Below, one piece after another: positions 10,609 to 49,007 of a stretch of DNA of 64,000 bases. The position numbers and the translations under genes are program-made. Every line of letters begins with the position of its first letter. Within the stretch, counting starts at the first letter, position 1. The notes beneath the pieces are model-generated. The model searched no databases. It was given only the letters and a program-made list of their open reading frames with translations, and was not told the DNA's origin. Source of the stretch: Cenarchaeum sp. (lineage in GTDB: Archaea > Thermoproteota > Nitrososphaeria > Nitrososphaerales > Nitrosopumilaceae); the NCBI GenBank assembly GCA_965206845.1, contig OZ242221.1:928001-992000 (forward strand). The letters are read 5' to 3'.

Positions 10609-10734
10609 GTCATCTTTGTCCAGCTTTCGGCACATTTAACTTGATCCGTGCGCCGATCGGGAATTATATTCTTGAGTGGACTTTCAAGACTTTTTCTGGC
10701 GCTCCGGCGATCCCTCCCACGCTTGGCTCTTGCG

Positions 10735-10882
10735 TGCCCCCAAGCCGGTTGAATGTGCTGTCATACGAGGCGCAGACATGGGAATAGTCCACAACGCAAC
10801 GACGGTGGACCTCGGCACCGGATACGCGGGGTTCCATGACATGCCCAAGGACTGCCAGAGGGCAAAGAACGACGGGATATCC
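10735..10882 (+). pseudogene. tnpB: tnpB fragment (RuvC-I region)
   Basis: APKPVECAVIRGADMGIVHNATTVDLGTGYAGFHDMPKDCQRAKNDGIS aligns to APEPSESAVIRGIDMGIVHGVATVDLGTGSHKFHDLPNDCRRAKDDDIS of the intact TnpB. Confidence 0.85.
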
Positions 10883-11344
10883 CCGATTCTACTGGCAATT
10901 CTTGCAACACATTGAATCGAGTCGGTTACCGGCATCTTCAGTTCCAGAGACTTGATTCGTAATTAGCGCCCGGGCATAAAATAGCGCAATCTTCGGCATA
11001 ATCACGCAAAATTTGTTTATTTCGAAACACATCTCTGTAAGTGTTGGACGAAAAAGGCTCGATCTTTAATTACGGATCAAGTCCCAGCTCCTTTACCAGC
11101 AGCCTGTAACACCTGGCGATATCCTTGCGCTTGATGTTGGCTGCCTGCTCCACGTCCTTGAGGTTTCTTGGCGTAGCCGTGTCCCTGCATGCGACGTACA
11201 GCGCCGAGGCCATGAGTGCGGAGCTGGATCTTCCCCTGACCAGGCCCTTCTCCAACGCCTTTCTGTATATGTATGCCGCCTTTTCTATCACCGCATCAGA
11301 TATTGCCAGCTTGTCCTTGAGCCTGTTCAGCTCCGAGAACGCCT
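10883..11344 (-). pseudogene. tfb: Duplicated tfb fragment in two pieces (10883-10947 and 11084-11344)
   Basis: Copies of 11596-11660 and 11657-11917; 6 mismatches counted by eye in 261 bp for the larger piece. Confidence 0.92.
10948..11084. mobile_element. Nested AT-rich MITE interrupting the tfb copy
   Basis: TIRs gacttgattcgtaatta (10949-10965) / taattacggatcaagtc (11067-11083), 16/17; (c)cag duplicated on both sides. Confidence 0.75.
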
Positions 11345-11366
11345 CACTCAAGAATATAATTCCCCA

Positions 11367-26761: not shown

Positions 26762-27357
26762 CGCATCAGGAGGCAATCAGGCACCTGAAGGGAGATCCCA
26801 CGCTGGCAGGGATAATAGACCGGGTCGGCGCATACAGCCTGAAGACAAGGCCAAACAGATTCCGCGCCCTGGTGGAGGCGATAGTGTCCCAGCAGCTCTC
26901 GGGGCGTGTGGCAGACGGGATTCTAAGGAACATGCGCGGCATCTACTCGGGAAGGTTTCCCAGCCCGCGCCAGGTCATCGCAACCCCAGACTCGAGGCTC
27001 CGGGAGGCAGGGCTCTCGGGAATGAAGATCGGCTACATCCGGGACATCTCCGGCCGGATCGAGTCGGGGGATCTCAGGATGCGATCCCTCTCCAGAATGT
27101 CTGACGAGCGGGTCATCGACAAGCTTACAGGCATCAAGGGAGTCGGGGTGTGGACCGCGCAGATGTTTCTGATCTTCTCGCTGGGCAGGCAGGACGTGCT
27201 GCCTACAGGGGATCTGGGCATAAGGAAGAGGTTCCAGGCGCTGTACGGCATTACCGACGAAGCGGGGATGATAAGGCTGGCAGAGGGATGGAGGCCCTAC
27301 CGAACCGTGGCGGCATGGTACCTGTGGAAGAGCGCGCACTTTGAGAACATAGGGTAA
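26758..27357 (+). CDS. alkA: DNA-3-methyladenine glycosylase II (AlkA family)
   Basis: IVSQQLS, IKGVGVWTA (HhH), LPTGDLGI, WRPYRTVA. Confidence 0.9.
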   Translation: MTHQEAIRHLKGDPTLAGIIDRVGAYSLKTRPNRFRALVEAIVSQQLSGRVADGILRNMRGIYSGRFPSPRQVIATPDSRLREAGLSGMKIGYIRDISGRIESGDLRMRSLSRMSDERVIDKLTGIKGVGVWTAQMFLIFSLGRQDVLPTGDLGIRKRFQALYGITDEAGMIRLAEGWRPYRTVAAWYLWKSAHFENIG

Positions 27358-27405
27358 CGGCCCCGCCGGACAACCCAAGATTCATTTAGAATATTTCACC
27401 CGGGT

Positions 27406-28461
27406 ATGTCGTACATGGCAGACGCGCAGCCGATAAGGACCATCCAGTGGAGGGACAACAGGGTGGTGATGATAGACCAGACAAAGCTCCCGACCAAGCT
27501 TGCGTTCGTCGAGTATGACGACTACAACCAGGTGGCAGATGCCATACGGAACTTGGTGATCCGTGGGGCGCCGGCCATAGGGGTGGCCGGAGCCTTTGGC
27601 CTGGCCCTGGCGGCGCTGCACAGCGATGCCGCAACCAAGGATCTGCTGGTTGAAGACATGCAGACTGCGCAGAGGACGCTCTTTGAGACAAGGCCCACGG
27701 CCATAAACCTCAAGTGGGGCCTGGATCACATAATGGCAGTAGCCAGACGGGGAACCGGCGTGGATGACACCCGCAGCTCCGTCTTGGACGCCGCAAAGCA
27801 GATGGCAGAGGACGACATCCGAATAAACAAGAGCATGGGGAGGCACGGCGCGGGACTATTCGGGGACGACACCATAATGACACACTGCAACGCTGGCGCC
27901 CTGGCGACCGTGGCATACGGTACCGCCCTGGGTGTCATCCGCGCCGCCAGGGAGTCAGGAAAGAAGATCAGGGTCATCGCTACTGAGACAAGGCCAGTGC
28001 AACAGGGCTCCAGGCTTACGGCATTCGAGCTCAAACACGATGGCATAGACGTCAGCCTGATCCCAGACACGGCGGTGGGCTACTCGATGGCAAACCACCT
28101 GGTGGACAAGGTCATAGTGGGAGCAGACCGCATACTGAGAACCGGCCACGTCTACAACAAGATTGGCACCTACCAGGTGGCCACCATGGCAAGACAGCAC
28201 GGTATACCGTTCTACGTGGCGGCGCCGCTCTCCACCTTTGACATGGAGAGCGATCCTGCCGACGTGGTCATAGAACAGAGGCGGCCAAGTGAGGTGACCG
28301 GGACGGGAGATAGGATGACCGCCCCCGAGGGCATAGACGTCATAAACCCCGCATTTGACATGACCCCGCCGGAGCTGGTCTCGGGCATCATAACCGAGAG
28401 GGGCGTGGTATCCCCACCCTACGAGCGATCCATCCGGGAGCTGTTCGGGCGCAAAAACTAA
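27406..28461 (+). CDS. mtnA: S-methyl-5-thioribose-1-phosphate isomerase
   Basis: IDQTKLP, RGAPAIG, RPTAINL, THCNAGALAT, ETRP, NKIGTY, NPAFD. Confidence 0.93.
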   Translation: MSYMADAQPIRTIQWRDNRVVMIDQTKLPTKLAFVEYDDYNQVADAIRNLVIRGAPAIGVAGAFGLALAALHSDAATKDLLVEDMQTAQRTLFETRPTAINLKWGLDHIMAVARRGTGVDDTRSSVLDAAKQMAEDDIRINKSMGRHGAGLFGDDTIMTHCNAGALATVAYGTALGVIRAARESGKKIRVIATETRPVQQGSRLTAFELKHDGIDVSLIPDTAVGYSMANHLVDKVIVGADRILRTGHVYNKIGTYQVATMARQHGIPFYVAAPLSTFDMESDPADVVIEQRRPSEVTGTGDRMTAPEGIDVINPAFDMTPPELVSGIITERGVVSPPYERSIRELFGRKN

Positions 28462-43626: not shown

Positions 43627-44377
43627 GGTCGGCGCGGCAGTCCATTCCCAGCGCCGCCAGCTTGCGCGAGAACGCCCCTGCGTCCCCGGACGCAAAGATC
43701 CTAAGCGGGCCCTGCGTCGGGGCGCTCCCGACTCTGGCACCGGCCTGCCGGGCCACATCGTCGGCCGGATCAAGAAACCTCACATCGGGAAACTCTGCCT
43801 CCATCATCCCCCTTAGGAACGGCAGGTGGGTGCTTGACAGCGTGGCCGTGTCGATGCCGCCCTGCCCAAGGCGGTCGGCCAGAACCCGCGAGATCTCCCT
43901 CCGGCAGCGCGGCGCATCCAGCACAAAACCGCCCGACTCCACCAGCCGGATCAGGGGGCTGCAGTTGACGGGCAGGACGGAGATCCCCTCCGGCAGGCGG
44001 CACCCCTCTATGTACCGGCGCAGCTCCGGGCCTGCGGCGACTGATTCGGTTGTGAGGACCGCAACGTTGCCGGTCCCGGTCATACCGGCCGCCCGGCTCA
44101 GTGGCGGATGCACCCCCAGCGTCCTGTCATCAAGGATCTCCGGAAGCAGCAGGGACGGCGTGTTGGAGCCCACTATTACAAGATCCGGCTTGAAGAGTCT
44201 CCGCAGGCCCGCTATGGTTCCCGTGATGATCCGCCCAAGCTCCGCACGGGTCTTGGTTCCGTATGGAAAGCTGTCGGTATCCGCATAGTATATGATCTCC
44301 GAGCGGAGCGTCCGTCGAAGGGGCCCGATAACGGACAGGGAGCCAAGTCCCGAATCAAAGATCGCTATTCTGGGCAT
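43613..44377 (-). CDS. murI: Glutamate racemase-like protein (catalytic Cys replaced by Ser)
   Basis: FDSGLGSLSV, FPYGTK; SNT and SSTH where MurI has CNT and GCTH. Confidence 0.8.
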   Translation of the reverse strand: MPRIAIFDSGLGSLSVIGPLRRTLRSEIIYYADTDSFPYGTKTRAELGRIITGTIAGLRRLFKPDLVIVGSNTPSLLLPEILDDRTLGVHPPLSRAAGMTGTGNVAVLTTESVAAGPELRRYIEGCRLPEGISVLPVNCSPLIRLVESGGFVLDAPRCRREISRVLADRLGQGGIDTATLSSTHLPFLRGMMEAEFPDVRFLDPADDVARQAGARVGSAPTQGPLRIFASGDAGAFSRKLAALGMDCRADPIAL

Positions 44378-44385
44378 AATCACAA

Positions 44386-44560
44386 GGGAATTATATACAT
44401 TAGTGTACAGCACCCATGCCTTTTTCTGGCGCTCTTGCATTGCCTCCCACGCTTGGCTCTCGCGTGCTGTTTGCGGAACGCGCGGGAGCAATCCCGCGCC
44501 GGCTTCTCGCGCCTTCAGACGACCATCCCGGCCGCCCTGCCGTCGCTTTCACGGCAATAT
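44386..44560 (-). ncRNA. Putative omega-RNA (reRNA) scaffold overlapping the tnpB 3' end
   Basis: Position expected for TnpB guides; hairpins gcgcggga-ttgc-tcccgcgc (44480-44499) and cacgc-N9-gcgtg, the latter retained in the 10659 derivative; boundaries inferred. Confidence 0.5.
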
Positions 44561-46097
44561 TATACGCGGCATTTACGTCCGCGTTGACGTCATTGTCACA
44601 GTTGTAATTGGTGCACCGGAACCTGTCCTGCGATATGCGGGATTCCTTGTCACTGTGGCCGCACCTGTGGCATGTTATGCTGGTGCCCTTGGGGTCCACC
44701 ATTACCACGATCACGCCGGCATTGGCGCACGCGCCCTTGATCAATCGTTGGAACGTGCCGGGCCTTGAGTAGGCCATCTCCCTGTTTAGTCCCGTCTTGG
44801 CGGAGCTTCCCCTTCCCTTGGCGCCCGCGGTCATGTTCACGAGGTTGAGATCCTCCATGGCCACCGTTCCGGCGCCGTCCGCTATCCTCTTGGAGGCGTG
44901 TCGCTCCCAGTTCGTCTGGCGGTTGGCAATCTTTTCCCTCTTTTTCCGGATCTTCCTGTGCAGCTCCTTGTAGCTTCTTGACTTGGTCTTCCTCGGCTTG
45001 TCCCTGTTGCGGCCGCTCGTGTTGTTGCTGCAGCCGCTGCCGCCAGTGCCGTTCCCACCGTCCGCGCTCTTGCTCCCGCCGTCGGAACCTTCCTTGGAAT
45101 CCTGTTTGGTGCGCCTGTTGCCGCGCCCCCCGCGCTTCTGAGAGAGCTCCGAGTACATCTTCGATATGTCGTCGTCCTTTGCCCTCCTGCAGTCATTTGG
45201 GAGGTCGTGGAACTTGTGGCTGCCGGTGCCAAGGTCGACGGTGGCGACGCCGTGGACTATGCCCATGTCGATGCCCCTTATGACCGCGGACTCGGACGGC
45301 TCCGGCGCCTTTATCCTGATCTGGATGTGGAGCCGGTACGTCCTGTTGTGATTCTTAGTGCGCTTCGTGGTCCTCTTGGTCGTCTCGACGAGCTGGAAGG
45401 AGCGCATGTCAAGGTCCTTAACGTCGCCGTGCACCCTCACCATGCCTATGCCGGGAAGGTGCAGCATGCCGTTGCCCTTGTAGACGGGCTTCTCAAAGAC
45501 CGAGAGTGACTTCGCTTCCCCCTTCATGCTGAACAGGGAATCCCTGTGGGTCCATTTGTTCCTCTTGTTGCTCCACTTGTTTGAGGGTAAATTTACAGCG
45601 GTGTCGATGTCCTTGACGCCCTCCTTTTCCCGGTCCCGCCTGGCCAGGTACTTCCACAATGACTTGTTGCGGCGCTTTTTGCCGTTTGATATTACGAACT
45701 TTTGAACGGCGTCCAGGCCCAGCAGGAGCCCCGCCCTCTGCACCATGCAGCTGCAGGCCTCCTTGCGTCCAGCGGCCAGCGCCTCCTTGTCATGGACCAG
45801 CCACCCGTTTGCGTCCCTCCATTTGGTGAGCATCTTGTTGAGGTCGAACTTGGTTGTCCTCGGGTCGTTGAGCTTCTCCCTGACGGCCATGTTGAACGCC
45901 CACCTCTGCGGGTCCATGTGGCGCGATATGAGATCCGACAGCTCCGCCGACTGGTCAAAGTCCACCTTTATGTTGCGTATCATGGCGCCATCCATTAGGC
46001 GCCTTGACCACTTTTTTGGCGCCGGCTCGGTTGCGGCTGCCGTTGCATCCGCCTGCTCCGTTGCCACTGCTGCCGCCTCCGCCATGATGGGTTTCAT
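44400..46097 (-). CDS. tnpB: RNA-guided endonuclease TnpB family protein (~565 aa)
   Basis: RuvC-I GIDMG, RuvC-II AMEDLNL, VDPKGTSITCHRCG Zn ribbon, FRC...C, RuvC-III NADVNAAYNI; start codon uncertain. Confidence 0.92.
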   Translation of the reverse strand: MKPIMAEAAAVATEQADATAAATEPAPKKWSRRLMDGAMIRNIKVDFDQSAELSDLISRHMDPQRWAFNMAVREKLNDPRTTKFDLNKMLTKWRDANGWLVHDKEALAAGRKEACSCMVQRAGLLLGLDAVQKFVISNGKKRRNKSLWKYLARRDREKEGVKDIDTAVNLPSNKWSNKRNKWTHRDSLFSMKGEAKSLSVFEKPVYKGNGMLHLPGIGMVRVHGDVKDLDMRSFQLVETTKRTTKRTKNHNRTYRLHIQIRIKAPEPSESAVIRGIDMGIVHGVATVDLGTGSHKFHDLPNDCRRAKDDDISKMYSELSQKRGGRGNRRTKQDSKEGSDGGSKSADGGNGTGGSGCSNNTSGRNRDKPRKTKSRSYKELHRKIRKKREKIANRQTNWERHASKRIADGAGTVAMEDLNLVNMTAGAKGRGSSAKTGLNREMAYSRPGTFQRLIKGACANAGVIVVMVDPKGTSITCHRCGHSDKESRISQDRFRCTNYNCDNDVNADVNAAYNIAVKATAGRPGWSSEGARSRRGIAPARSANSTREPSVGGNARAPEKGMGAVH

Positions 46098-46661
46098 TAC
46101 GCATTCAATATGCCATGCGCATAAAAACACCGCGACAACACTATCATTAGTGTGCAGACCATGCTGACCGTCCGCACTGTCATATCCATCGTTTCCGCCG
46201 CGCCTGTCCGCGCGGTTCCGGCCGCCACGGTGCGGCGCCGGCACCCGCTGGAACGGCCATCATGGCGGAAGGCCCGAAAAGGACGGGTTTTGGCCGCTTT
46301 TGAATGCAGTTCCCGCCTTGCAATGCCGGACCGGTCCGGGACGGCGCCTTAAATACGGATCCGGCATTTGCCCGCGTGAAAGGCGCGACCAGACCGCCGC
46401 CTTCCTGGGCTTTTGCCTGCCTCGGGATGCCTGCCGGCGCCGGAAAACCCGGGACAGCCATCGGCCAGTCATGAACCGGGAAGACCGGTCTGCGGACCGC
46501 ATTATCGGCCTGGACGGGAGGCCCCGGACATGCGGCGGCGGCTGTTCACTTAACTATATAATTCCCAATCACAACACATTCTGGTTTTGTTAGCTAAATT
46601 TAGTCTAGGGTTGATCTAAATATACCCCTCTCATTAAGAGTGCAATACTAGACTGCCAATT

Positions 46662-47339: not shown

Positions 47340-48503
47340 TTAAGACCAGATCTTCTCCTTGAAGGTAAACCGCTTGTTCAGGATAAAGTTGCCAAAGGAC
47401 GCGGCCGCAACCGCCGGTATCAGCGCGATGGGATAGCTCATCGAGGAGCTCTCCACCAGGGCAAAGACGGCGCCCAGCTGAACCAGCGCCCCCAGGGAGC
47501 TGACCCCTATGAACTTGGCGTACTGCGCCACCGTCCTTGCGGGGGCAAAGTTTCTGTCCTCAAACGTCCAGAACTTGTTGAGCACAAAATTGCTGGTCAT
47601 TGAAGCGAGTATTCCCAGTATATTTGCGTGGATGTACCACAAATCATTGGAGCCGCCGGCAAGCAGCAGGGACATGAGGTAGTTGATCCCGAGTCCCGAG
47701 GCGCCCACCGTGTAGAACCTGGCCGCCTTTGAGAGAAAGCGCGCCGATGTCTTGGGCTTTGATCTCGAGCCCCGCCTGCCGTTCCTGTACAGCCTCCAGA
47801 CGGATCTGAGATAGTCGACGGCCACCTTCAGGTCCAGCTTGCTGGAGCCAAACTGCCTGTCGCGGAACGTGTAGGGGATCTCCTTGATGGACGCTCCCCT
47901 GGCCTTGACCAGGATCTCAAGCAGCATCTTGTATCCCATTGCGTCAAACTTTAGATCCCTGATGAGGCTCTTCTTGAAGGCAAAGAACCCCGACATGGGA
48001 TCCTCGGTCCGTATCCCGAGCCCCTTCTGGGCAATCTTTGCGGCCACCTTGCTTTGGATCTTTCTCTTTATCGGCCAGTTCTTGATCGCGCTGCCCGGGA
48101 TGTACCTGGAGGCGATCACGATGTCAAACTTGGACCGCCTTATCAGATCCACCATTCTGGGAATTATCTGCGGCGGGTGGGAAAAGTCGCTGTCCATGAC
48201 CACTATGATGTCGCCTGACGCGTGCTGGATTCCGTTGAGTATGGCCGAGCTCAGGCCCTTCTTTATCTTCCTGTGCACCACGTCCACGGTGTAGTCTGTC
48301 AGGCGCCTGACGTTCCTGATGTAGTCGTCTACCATGCGCCCCGTGCCGTCCGGCGAGTTGTCGTCCACCACTATCGTCTCGGTTCTTGCGTTCCCGGGGC
48401 GGTTCTCGCCTATGGATCTGAGAACGCCCAGAACATTCATCGACTCGTTGTACGTGGAGAGTATTATCGATACCTGGGCGTTGCGGGGGTTTTTCAGCGT
48501 CAC
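47340..48503 (-). CDS. GT2 dolichol-phosphate mannosyltransferase-like protein with C-terminal GtrA domain
   Basis: STYNE, VVDDNSPDGT, MDSDFSHPP, DPMSGFF, NFVLNKFWTF; GTG start inferred. Confidence 0.9.
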   Translation of the reverse strand: MTLKNPRNAQVSIILSTYNESMNVLGVLRSIGENRPGNARTETIVVDDNSPDGTGRMVDDYIRNVRRLTDYTVDVVHRKIKKGLSSAILNGIQHASGDIIVVMDSDFSHPPQIIPRMVDLIRRSKFDIVIASRYIPGSAIKNWPIKRKIQSKVAAKIAQKGLGIRTEDPMSGFFAFKKSLIRDLKFDAMGYKMLLEILVKARGASIKEIPYTFRDRQFGSSKLDLKVAVDYLRSVWRLYRNGRRGSRSKPKTSARFLSKAARFYTVGASGLGINYLMSLLLAGGSNDLWYIHANILGILASMTSNFVLNKFWTFEDRNFAPARTVAQYAKFIGVSSLGALVQLGAVFALVESSSMSYPIALIPAVAAASFGNFILNKRFTFKEKIWS

Positions 48504-49007
48504 TTTACAGTCGATGTTTGTGGGGGGAATTATATATTTAAGTTCACAAAACGGGTGAACTGCGTGGCGACCGTTCGGGTTACCCACTCCATAGCAGGCA
48601 TCAGCCTGAGGCACGAATTCTGGCATATGCGGCGGATCGCACAAGTGTGAAATCCTACTTATGCAGTAACTGGCGAGTCCCGTGATAATCTCTGGCCAGT
48701 CGGGGGCACGGCATAGAGGCAGGACACAAGGTGATCGAGAAATCAAGAGCGGAGGCATCTAACAAGATGTCAAATCAGGTACGTTCTGCTTTCTGTATTT
48801 ATTGCGGATGTTCAACCTATGGGTACCGGATGGTGCAACCCGGCATGGCGTGTAGACCGGGGATGGAAGACTTGTCGTAACGTAGGACGGCCTCGTGGAA
48901 GATAATTCTGGGCGTGATGTGTGGCAGCCGGCCGGAACCGTCACCCCAATACAGGCAGCCGGGGAGCGCATTTGCGCTAACCTGATGCACAACGCACTGA
49001 CAAACTC

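Follow-up and report, generated by a model that had tools for sequence, protein, structure and literature searches.

TnpB nucleases are usually explained by the scarless cycle of IS605 and IS607 elements, in which the target of the transposase is also the target-adjacent motif (TAM) of the nuclease. Members of the IS1595 family, as catalogued in ISfinder, make 8-bp direct repeats, and the ends of the ISNwi1 group in that database we take to be of the type GGnnATTAT; family members with passenger genes were reportedly described by Siguier, Gagnevin and Chandler in 2009. Casposons generate target-site duplications (TSDs) of about 14-15 bp, and Bao and Jurka are said to have placed Fanzor1, in 2013, in eukaryotic transposons with terminal inverted repeats (TIRs). 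Here we describe a 2181-bp element with tnpB as its sole gene from the archaeon Cenarchaeum sp., situated in a window (the whole stretch of DNA that was analysed) of 64,000 nucleotides from contig OZ242221.1, positions 928,001 to 992,000. We consider it, with a probability of roughly 0.8, to belong to a set of related non-autonomous transposons of the IS1595 family, whose inverted ends begin with GGGAATTATATA, which generate 8-bp TSDs and in which an OMEGA module (obligate mobile element-guided activity) has replaced the transposase.

The arrangement of such a nuclease within a foreign transposon is already published. The main text of Altae-Tran et al. (2023, PNAS; PMC10691335) describes six DDE-associated TnpB branches (DDE-1 to DDE-6) with inverted terminal repeats, in which the tnpB 3' end mostly lies less than 250 bp from an end of the transposon; its solo TnpBs have the ends of their transposase-bearing relatives, which implies that they are moved in trans. 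The window TnpB resembles these in its DDE-type inverted ends and in having its 3' end within 250 bp of one of them, but the partner named in that main text is IS630 and the shell here is of the IS1595 type; "IS1595" occurs there 0 times, and the supplement may hold an IS1595-linked branch. The relevant sections of a 2026 review (PMC13565253) give ISL2, IS630, IS1031, tyrosine recombinases and Cas1 as TnpB partners, discuss the rarity of OMEGA-DDE links, and present as debated how, or whether, a nuclease helps a target-duplicating cut-and-paste DDE transposon. Our literature searches found no report of tnpB as a passenger of the IS1595 family. The novelty implied by the original prediction, an earlier reading of this DNA from its letters, was nevertheless too high, since DDE-associated and solo TnpBs with the same ends are already in the main text of PMC10691335.

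The bounds of the element proved to be as predicted. The unit has inverted ends and is flanked directly on both sides by the 8-bp repeat AATCACAA, inside which the sequence reads GGGAATTATATACATTAGTG at 44386-44405 and CACTTAACTATATAATTCCC at 46547-46566. An inverted-repeat search of the window gave TIRs of 26 nt with 85% complementarity, exact over the outer 12 nt. Allowing at most one mismatch, GGGAATTATATANNNNNGT has five matches in the window, compared with a mean of 0.00 in 100 dinucleotide-preserving shuffles. Likewise, tnpB was confirmed as the only credible gene. Its product matches Pfam Cas12f1-like_TNB (PF07282) at 7e-16, with a weak match to OrfB_IS605 below the cut-off, and has a CxxC...CxxC zinc finger and a low-complexity insert between RuvC-I and RuvC-II. 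The presumed RuvC residues D276, E414 and D506 (numbered in a 564-aa query) are invariant in 8/8 aligned copies, as are the zinc-finger cysteines, and the motifs around the E and the third D align with solved TnpB/Cas12f chains. The end repeat contains the TAA stop codon (44400-44402), at a distance of 15-17 nt from the terminus of the element.

The window genome (1.65 Mb in a single contig, 99.99% complete) holds many relatives of this element. With at most one mismatch, the 12-nt end core occurs 23 times in forward and 22 times in reverse orientation, and 15 pairs of ends lie 1.83-2.64 kb apart. All 15 enclose a tnpB, and in 15/15 copies its 3' end abuts one of the end repeats. The 8-bp flanks match at 8/8 positions in ten copies, at 7/8 in two, and at 6/8, 5/8 and 1/8 in one copy each, while the duplicated sequence is different at every one of the 15 sites. 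An open reading frame (ORF) of more than 520 aa is kept in 12/15 copies; the other three have, respectively, one TGA, a frameshift that splits the frame, and a truncation by a nested insertion sequence (IS). The inverted ends and duplications are thus kept by the other copies too. The claim that no TnpA or DDE gene lies inside the element was borne out; for the whole set, a tblastn search with an IS1595 transposase returned only noise at E>1, and neither an ORF nor a remnant of an IS1595-type DDE transposase was present in any of the 15 copies.

These copies are difficult to reconcile with an ordinary tnpB-only element of the IS200/IS605 type (IS1341 group), moved by a Y1 TnpA and surrounded by inverted ends and an 8-bp repeat only by coincidence. 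Such tnpB-only elements are the commonest context of TnpB in the relevant parts of PMC10691335 and PMC13565253, and the window element shares with the IS1341 group and its omega RNA, as in ISDra2, a sole tnpB gene and a structured 3' RNA reaching the element end, with a hairpin (helix 7) near that end. However, IS200/IS605 elements, as characterized in sections of PMC13565253, have subterminal hairpins, no TIRs or TSDs, and a Y1 target that equals the TAM, whereas here ten of 15 duplications are perfect and all differ in sequence, the ends are inverted and identical to those of IS1595 elements, and the end pattern is absent from shuffled sequence. Insertion of IS200/IS605 occurs 3' of a fixed tetra- or pentanucleotide, unlike the variable 8-bp duplications of the window family, and a guide in the window element would begin with the duplicated bases, again unlike IS200/IS605. 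Y1 TnpA (PF01797) has 0 matches in the window genome, the control being positive in 6/14 genomes. We therefore give this explanation hardly any credence. Serine recombinase (PF00239) and Cas1 (PF01867) also have 0 matches in the window genome, with working controls in both cases. An IS607 element, which has a serine recombinase and neither TIR nor TSD, thus differs from the window element, and so does a casposon; the casposase that had been named as an alternative mover is rejected, there being no Cas1 match and a TSD of 8 bp.

The nature of the shell was revealed by elements with the same ends in other genomes. An end-pattern scan of a genome collection returned at least 132 stretches, mostly single matches; by our own estimate, thousands of single chance matches are expected for 14 specified bases in the collection scanned. 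Inverted pairs 1.2-1.8 kb apart among the matches listed comprise seven distinct elements with 8/8 duplications and one with 7/8. The outer 12 nt of the window element together with N5GT (GGGAATTATATA-N5-GT) are identical to the ends of five transposase-encoding elements among the matches listed, and likewise to element ends in two Rhodothermales genomes, G419 and G421. Each of the five (L028, L081, L086, L032 and L036) encodes a transposase-type protein of ~310-335 aa. Those of L028, L081 and L086 match Pfam DDE_Tnp_IS1595 at 1e-34 to 5e-43 as well as Zn_ribbon_IS1595, those of L032 and L036 are 39-44% identical by BLAST to the IS1595 transposase of the window genome, and the transposases of the G419 elements reach 54% in the same comparison. 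Duplications flanking the transposase-encoding elements with these ends are mostly 8/8.

The same ends also enclose other cargo. Five elements among the matches listed (L066, L024, L050, L051 and, by BLAST, L069) contain TnpB only, and G417, of the L066 lineage, has 17 full TnpB-only copies; its 20 unpaired end-repeat matches yielded no further intact copy with a matching duplication, most being solo or truncated. In G419, elements of 2.7-4.0 kb with 8/8 duplications combine an IS1595 transposase with a DNA-methyltransferase-like ORF, recognised by eye from its DPPFN motif. One of these passenger elements lies within a larger segment found at five places with identical flanks. In G421 (5.9 Mb), composites of 3701-3718 bp hold an IS1595 transposase and a co-oriented tnpB within one outer end pair; they are mutually 98-99% identical, and 4/4 have perfect 8-bp duplications. 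What is amplified in this genome is a mosaic unit of 3.7 kb, made up of three modules that each have IS1595-type ends of their own, and 1.28-kb TnpB units without duplications, considered as separate elements, were rejected because they are modules of the composite. Matches to the end pattern (forward/reverse) and to PF12762, fragments included, number 32/33 and 9 (4 full-length) in G417, 17/22 and 20 in G419, 263/226 and 54 in G421, 1/3 and 0 in G418, and 3/2 and 0 in G420; the window genome (G000), with its 23/22 cores, has one PF12762 match. From the shared ends, the 8-bp duplications and the transposase- and composite-bearing relatives it follows that the shell is of the IS1595 type and that an autonomous two-gene form exists.

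These results agree with the proposal that tnpB sits in an unrelated TIR/TSD transposon whose DDE enzyme acts in trans, for which the shared IS1595 ends, the 8-bp TSDs and the G421 composite all speak. IS1595 was among the families that had been named as candidates with 8-bp TSDs, and the search for the end pattern that had been suggested did lead to elements encoding a transposase of that family. The window element is thus like the IS1595 family in its end type and 8-bp TSD, and has passenger-carrying relatives in G419, but unlike it in having no DDE transposase, which is encoded in same-end relatives and by one separate gene.

That separate gene is the only PF12762 match in the window genome, an intact ORF of 309 aa with a zinc ribbon at genome 27524-28453, outside the window. 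Its product shares 50-59% identity with the IS1595 transposases found in G417, G419 and G421. Downstream of the gene, at L145:1100-1320 (genome ~27200-27450), a CACTTTTGAAC-like motif recurs several times; it is similar to the inner portion of the ends of the TnpB elements and, to judge by this likeness, may be what is left of the lost second end of the transposase gene.

Other enzymes make scarcely conceivable movers, whether a Cas1 casposase or the IS4/IS5-type DDE transposases of the window genome. DDE_Tnp_1 elements are indeed numerous there, and one is nested in a TnpB copy. The DDE ORF inside this copy, at genome 870565, was rejected as a partner, as it belongs to a nested 1209-bp DDE_Tnp_1 element with other ends: GGGGTTGGTGCGTAATTCT, unrelated to those of the TnpB elements, with 9-bp duplications and seven copies of 94-100% protein identity. 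This 1209-bp IS, at genome 870719-871926, replaced the 5' half of the TnpB element without leaving a duplication. Two other IS families of the window genome have ends unrelated to the TnpB-element ends as well, and the duplications of its other IS families are of 9 bp, which together with the missing Cas1 match speaks against any of these movers. The genome contains at least two further IS families, with ends GGCTGTGTCCTAGAGACATAAC (~1.23 kb) and TGTATTGTAAC...TATGTCC (~1.06 kb), and is very repeat-rich, with 184 merged repeated segments of at least 250 bp in a self-BLAST.

At its own site, the window element begins 8 bp upstream of a murI-like ATG at 44377, as predicted. The flanking genes are glutamate-racemase-like (murI-like, with a weak Pfam match) and of the Snf7/CdvB type. 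In 5/5 relatives examined (G001, G002, G008, G016 and G018), murI and cdvB are divergent neighbours with a spacer of 84-108 bp; here the spacer measures 95 bp after subtraction of the 2181-bp unit and one repeat copy, and its cdvB-proximal part is recognisably conserved in the relatives. By this comparison, the 2.2-kb unit between murI and cdvB is an insertion. The check for an empty site thus succeeded as far as the adjacency of the two genes goes, but the exact single AATCACAA is not visible owing to the strong divergence of these genomes, in which CdvB is 61-78% identical. Contigs of two DNA runs from two studies span both junctions of the insertion with 0-1 differences. The insertion separates the murI-like gene from the shared 95-bp promoter spacer, leaving it 8 bp downstream of tnpB and the RNA region in the same orientation; from this layout, the gene may rely for its transcription on read-through or on the TATATAA that the end repeat contains.

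Several observations weigh against a family that is still moving in this genome. At the DNA level even the most similar copies share no more than 73-84% identity, which gives no sign of recent movement here. Among contigs of the two DNA runs, none joins across the window insertion and no empty site appears. The sole IS1595 transposase gene keeps one recognisable end, GGGGCTTATATCGCTGAGTACAC (18/23 to a TnpB-element end), and a second end was not found within 8 kb. The copies might accordingly be immobile relics of a horizontally acquired family whose transposase source is gone or incompatible, with tnpB kept for another role or slowly decaying. This would account for the divergence of the copies, the occurrence of the window insertion in contigs of both studies with no empty site, the lost end of the resident transposase gene and the disruption of three of 15 copies (a TGA, a frameshift and an inserted IS); moreover, a search of 400 further genomes from the same taxonomic family as the host revealed no member of the window TnpB family at E<=1e-40. 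From 40 relatives and from these 400 genomes, weak fragments in G018 were the only yield, and a TnpB-alignment search of genome and metagenome contig collections gave no match, the peptide patterns used being lineage-specific.

Other observations speak against this explanation. Twelve of the 15 ORFs are intact with invariant RuvC residues, and the tnpB core is under purifying selection: the ratio of nonsynonymous to synonymous substitution rates (dN/dS) has a median of 0.24 over 66 copy pairs, compared with 1.07 for the last part of the ORF. The synonymous divergence (dS) between tnpB copies has a median of 0.74, and ten of 15 duplications are nonetheless perfect; therefore, the insertions must be much younger than the split between the copies. 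In a protein database, many relatives of the window TnpB at 55-82% identity are found on other long contigs. We thus regard the relic explanation as unlikely, although of all the alternatives to the non-autonomous IS1595-family transposon it is the one we take most seriously.

The 3' part of the element (Table 1) has the marks of a functional RNA. In the 15-copy alignment the last ~180 nt, read in the tnpB sense, are better conserved than the coding DNA upstream, and RNAalifold folds them into 43 pairs in seven helices, with compensatory changes at nine pairs. Paired cells amount to 97.5% and the covariation score to 0.234; with the partners slid, these values fall to 39-50% and 0.04-0.08, and 0/500 shuffles attain the covariation score. 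A number of invariant G-U pairs are confined to the strand in the tnpB sense. The last hairpin draws on the variable inner portion of the end repeat, with which it covaries. Variable sites in the final 150 nt of the ORF are spread evenly over the codon positions (21, 24 and 22 of 50), whereas the counts upstream are 20, 15 and 32 of 44-45; from this evenness and the tail dN/dS of 1.07 we conclude that the C-terminal ~50 residues are a read-through over RNA-constrained DNA. Rfam gave no match for the region. Its predicted fold and position fit an omega RNA with the flank as its guide, composed of the duplication and the bases that follow.

Table 1. Features of the TnpB element, in window coordinates.
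Feature	Position	Strand	Remarks
TSD, left copy, AATCACAA	44378-44385		8/8 match to 46567-46574; downstream copy in tnpB sense
TIR at tnpB 3' end	44386-44411	-	Outer 12 nt GGGAATTATATA; includes tnpB stop codon
Omega-RNA-like structured region	44386-44575	-	Overlaps unconstrained ORF tail and inner part of end repeat
tnpB, 565 aa from ATG	44400-46097	-	Only gene with a family match inside the element
TATA-like box, TTTTTAT in tnpB sense	46120-46128	-	~27 nt upstream of tnpB ATG
Degenerate relic of older 5' end repeat	46292-46314	-	From alignment with termini of shorter copies
Extra 5' module, ~226 bp, GC-rich, non-coding	46315-46540	-	Common to longer copies; ends in present 5' end repeat
TIR at tnpB 5' side	46541-46566	+	Reverse complement GGGAATTATATAGTTAAGTGAACAGC
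TSD, right copy, AATCACAA	46567-46574		C46575 complements the conserved G at -1

The TATA-like box upstream of tnpB belongs to a conserved column block in the alignment of the 5' regions, reading TTTTATAC/TTTTATGC in most copies, and is probably the archaeal promoter of the gene. Two RNA-library runs labelled sponge metagenome contain exact pieces of the window tnpB; as evidence for a transcript these count for less than they might, since RNA-library contigs can neither show transcript ends nor exclude DNA carry-over. The high depth over 44404-44605 in one RNA run appears in DNA runs too, because ~15 copies collapse there.

At the 5' side, the copies differ in length. The relic GGGAACTGCATTCAAAAGCGGCC of the window copy aligns with GGGAATTATATACAAAAGTACAC, the true 5' terminus of the copies of 1.83-1.93 kb, and neither the ORF list nor a family search gave a family-matched ORF in the extra module beyond it. 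The short copies have long symmetric ends of up to ~130 nt, which repeat the 3' RNA region in inverted orientation. On this alignment, the ends of the longer copies, the window copy included, have been swapped by nesting, which left the relic inner end and added the 5' module. Such nesting, and the side-by-side modules with their own ends within the G421 composite, could also point to an IS605-type tnpB unit that sits inside an IS1595-type miniature element and has kept functional ends of its own. We find this improbable: in all 15 copies and in the elements of G417, G418, G419, G420 and G421, the 3' end of tnpB, like the RNA structure, passes into the IS1595-type end with no spacer between, the relic ends are themselves of the IS1595 and not the IS605 type, and Y1 and serine enzymes were not found in the window genome.

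Further end repeats of the same kind occur by themselves or in other combinations. At window 10659-11364 there is a 706-bp element with GGGAATTATATTCTTGAGT at both ends (one mismatch to the core), without a duplication (3/8) and holding only a TnpB fragment, residues ~262-314; it appears to be a family copy with an internal deletion. A solo end repeat, GGGAATTATATATTTAAGT, matches the pattern exactly at 48525-48543, with no partner end nearby. It sits in the 5' part of, or upstream of, the minus-strand ORF 47340-48758, which, judged by eye, resembles a GT2-type glycosyltransferase. Outside the window, at genome 1008018-1008077, two end repeats stand in tandem, the second directly after one 30-nt end, a layout suggestive of one element having inserted right at the terminus of another.

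In elements arranged by the direction of tnpB, the base immediately 5' to the upstream duplication is strongly G; in the empty site, a TAM would end at this position. This base is G in 15/15 TnpB elements of the window genome (flank G frequency 0.28; p about 6e-9), in 13/17 of those of G417 (flank G frequency 0.20; p about 7e-7), at the transposase-side flank of 15/16 composites and modules of G421, two transposase-only modules among them, and in 2/3 of the single TnpB elements L024, L050 and L051. The three TnpB lineages with this G share only ~35% identity. In contrast, TnpB-less IS1595 elements at independent sites have G in 2/10 and C in 7/10 cases. At the mirror position, beyond the downstream duplication, C is not enriched (5/15), even where the ends of a copy are identical over at least 20 nt. 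Ends that are symmetric as seen by the transposase should not give a one-sided G. This G in TnpB-bearing elements is possibly a new observation; a G at the TAM position is not described in the relevant passages of PMC10691335.

The idea that the G is the last base of the TAM, that the guide begins with the target duplication and that the CCC terminus shields the occupied site is attractive on these grounds, but we put it forward tentatively and would not yet bet on it. Counting against it are the two transposase-only 1775-bp modules of G421, which have 8/8 duplications and also G at -1, so that the G may be a target preference of the transposase and not a TAM. In addition, the TnpB-less control comprises only ten independent sites and has an unexplained bias to C (7/10). 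Of the four G417 elements without the G, three belong to one subfamily with other inner ends, and the fourth (L157) has no matching duplication.

A life cycle of the IS1595-family element with its OMEGA module can be sketched from these features. An IS1595 DDE transposase supplied in trans, for which the gene at genome 27524-28453 is the candidate, would bind the ends and insert the element with an 8-bp staggered cut. tnpB would be transcribed from its own TATA-like promoter, and the 3' part of the transcript would fold into the omega RNA. This RNA would end its scaffold at the end repeat and run on into the flanking DNA, so that the guide would consist of the duplication and the next bases (TTGTGATT followed by ATGCCC...), the left TSD copy providing the first 8 nt. 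TnpB would then cleave the same site in an allele that lacks the element, and repair with an occupied copy as template would restore the element. The conserved G before the upstream duplication would serve as the last TAM base, and the CCC at the repeat end would protect the occupied site.

The parallel with Fanzor capture drawn in the original prediction is a fair one, as an analogy. Fanzor1 is likewise a TnpB-type nuclease captured by unrelated TIR/TSD transposons, and the relevant part of Jiang et al. (2023; PMC10530073) describes Fanzor guide RNAs that overlap the right inverted repeat and TAMs that sometimes agree with insertion sites. The likeness goes no further, since the window case is prokaryotic and its TnpB has canonical Pfam domains.

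In conclusion, the window element is an instance of a kind already described in the main text of PMC10691335, and three TnpB lineages occur in one shell type, in archaea and bacteria. Some of the hosts are probably sponge-associated, as the sponge-metagenome RNA runs and sponge-derived taxon names among the matches listed suggest. With many independent insertions that have intact duplications, and with both solo and transposase-linked forms, the family is a natural test set, in which the orientation-specific flank base is directly testable as a TAM; the family also enlarges the editing toolbox by compact TnpBs of archaea whose RNA regions are defined. If the G is indeed a TAM base, insertions would be directed to, or would survive only at, TAM-adjacent sites. 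The family would then be a working prokaryotic counterpart of Fanzor1 in eukaryotic TIR transposons, and would involve IS1595, a DDE family that the literature searched does not list among the partners of TnpB.

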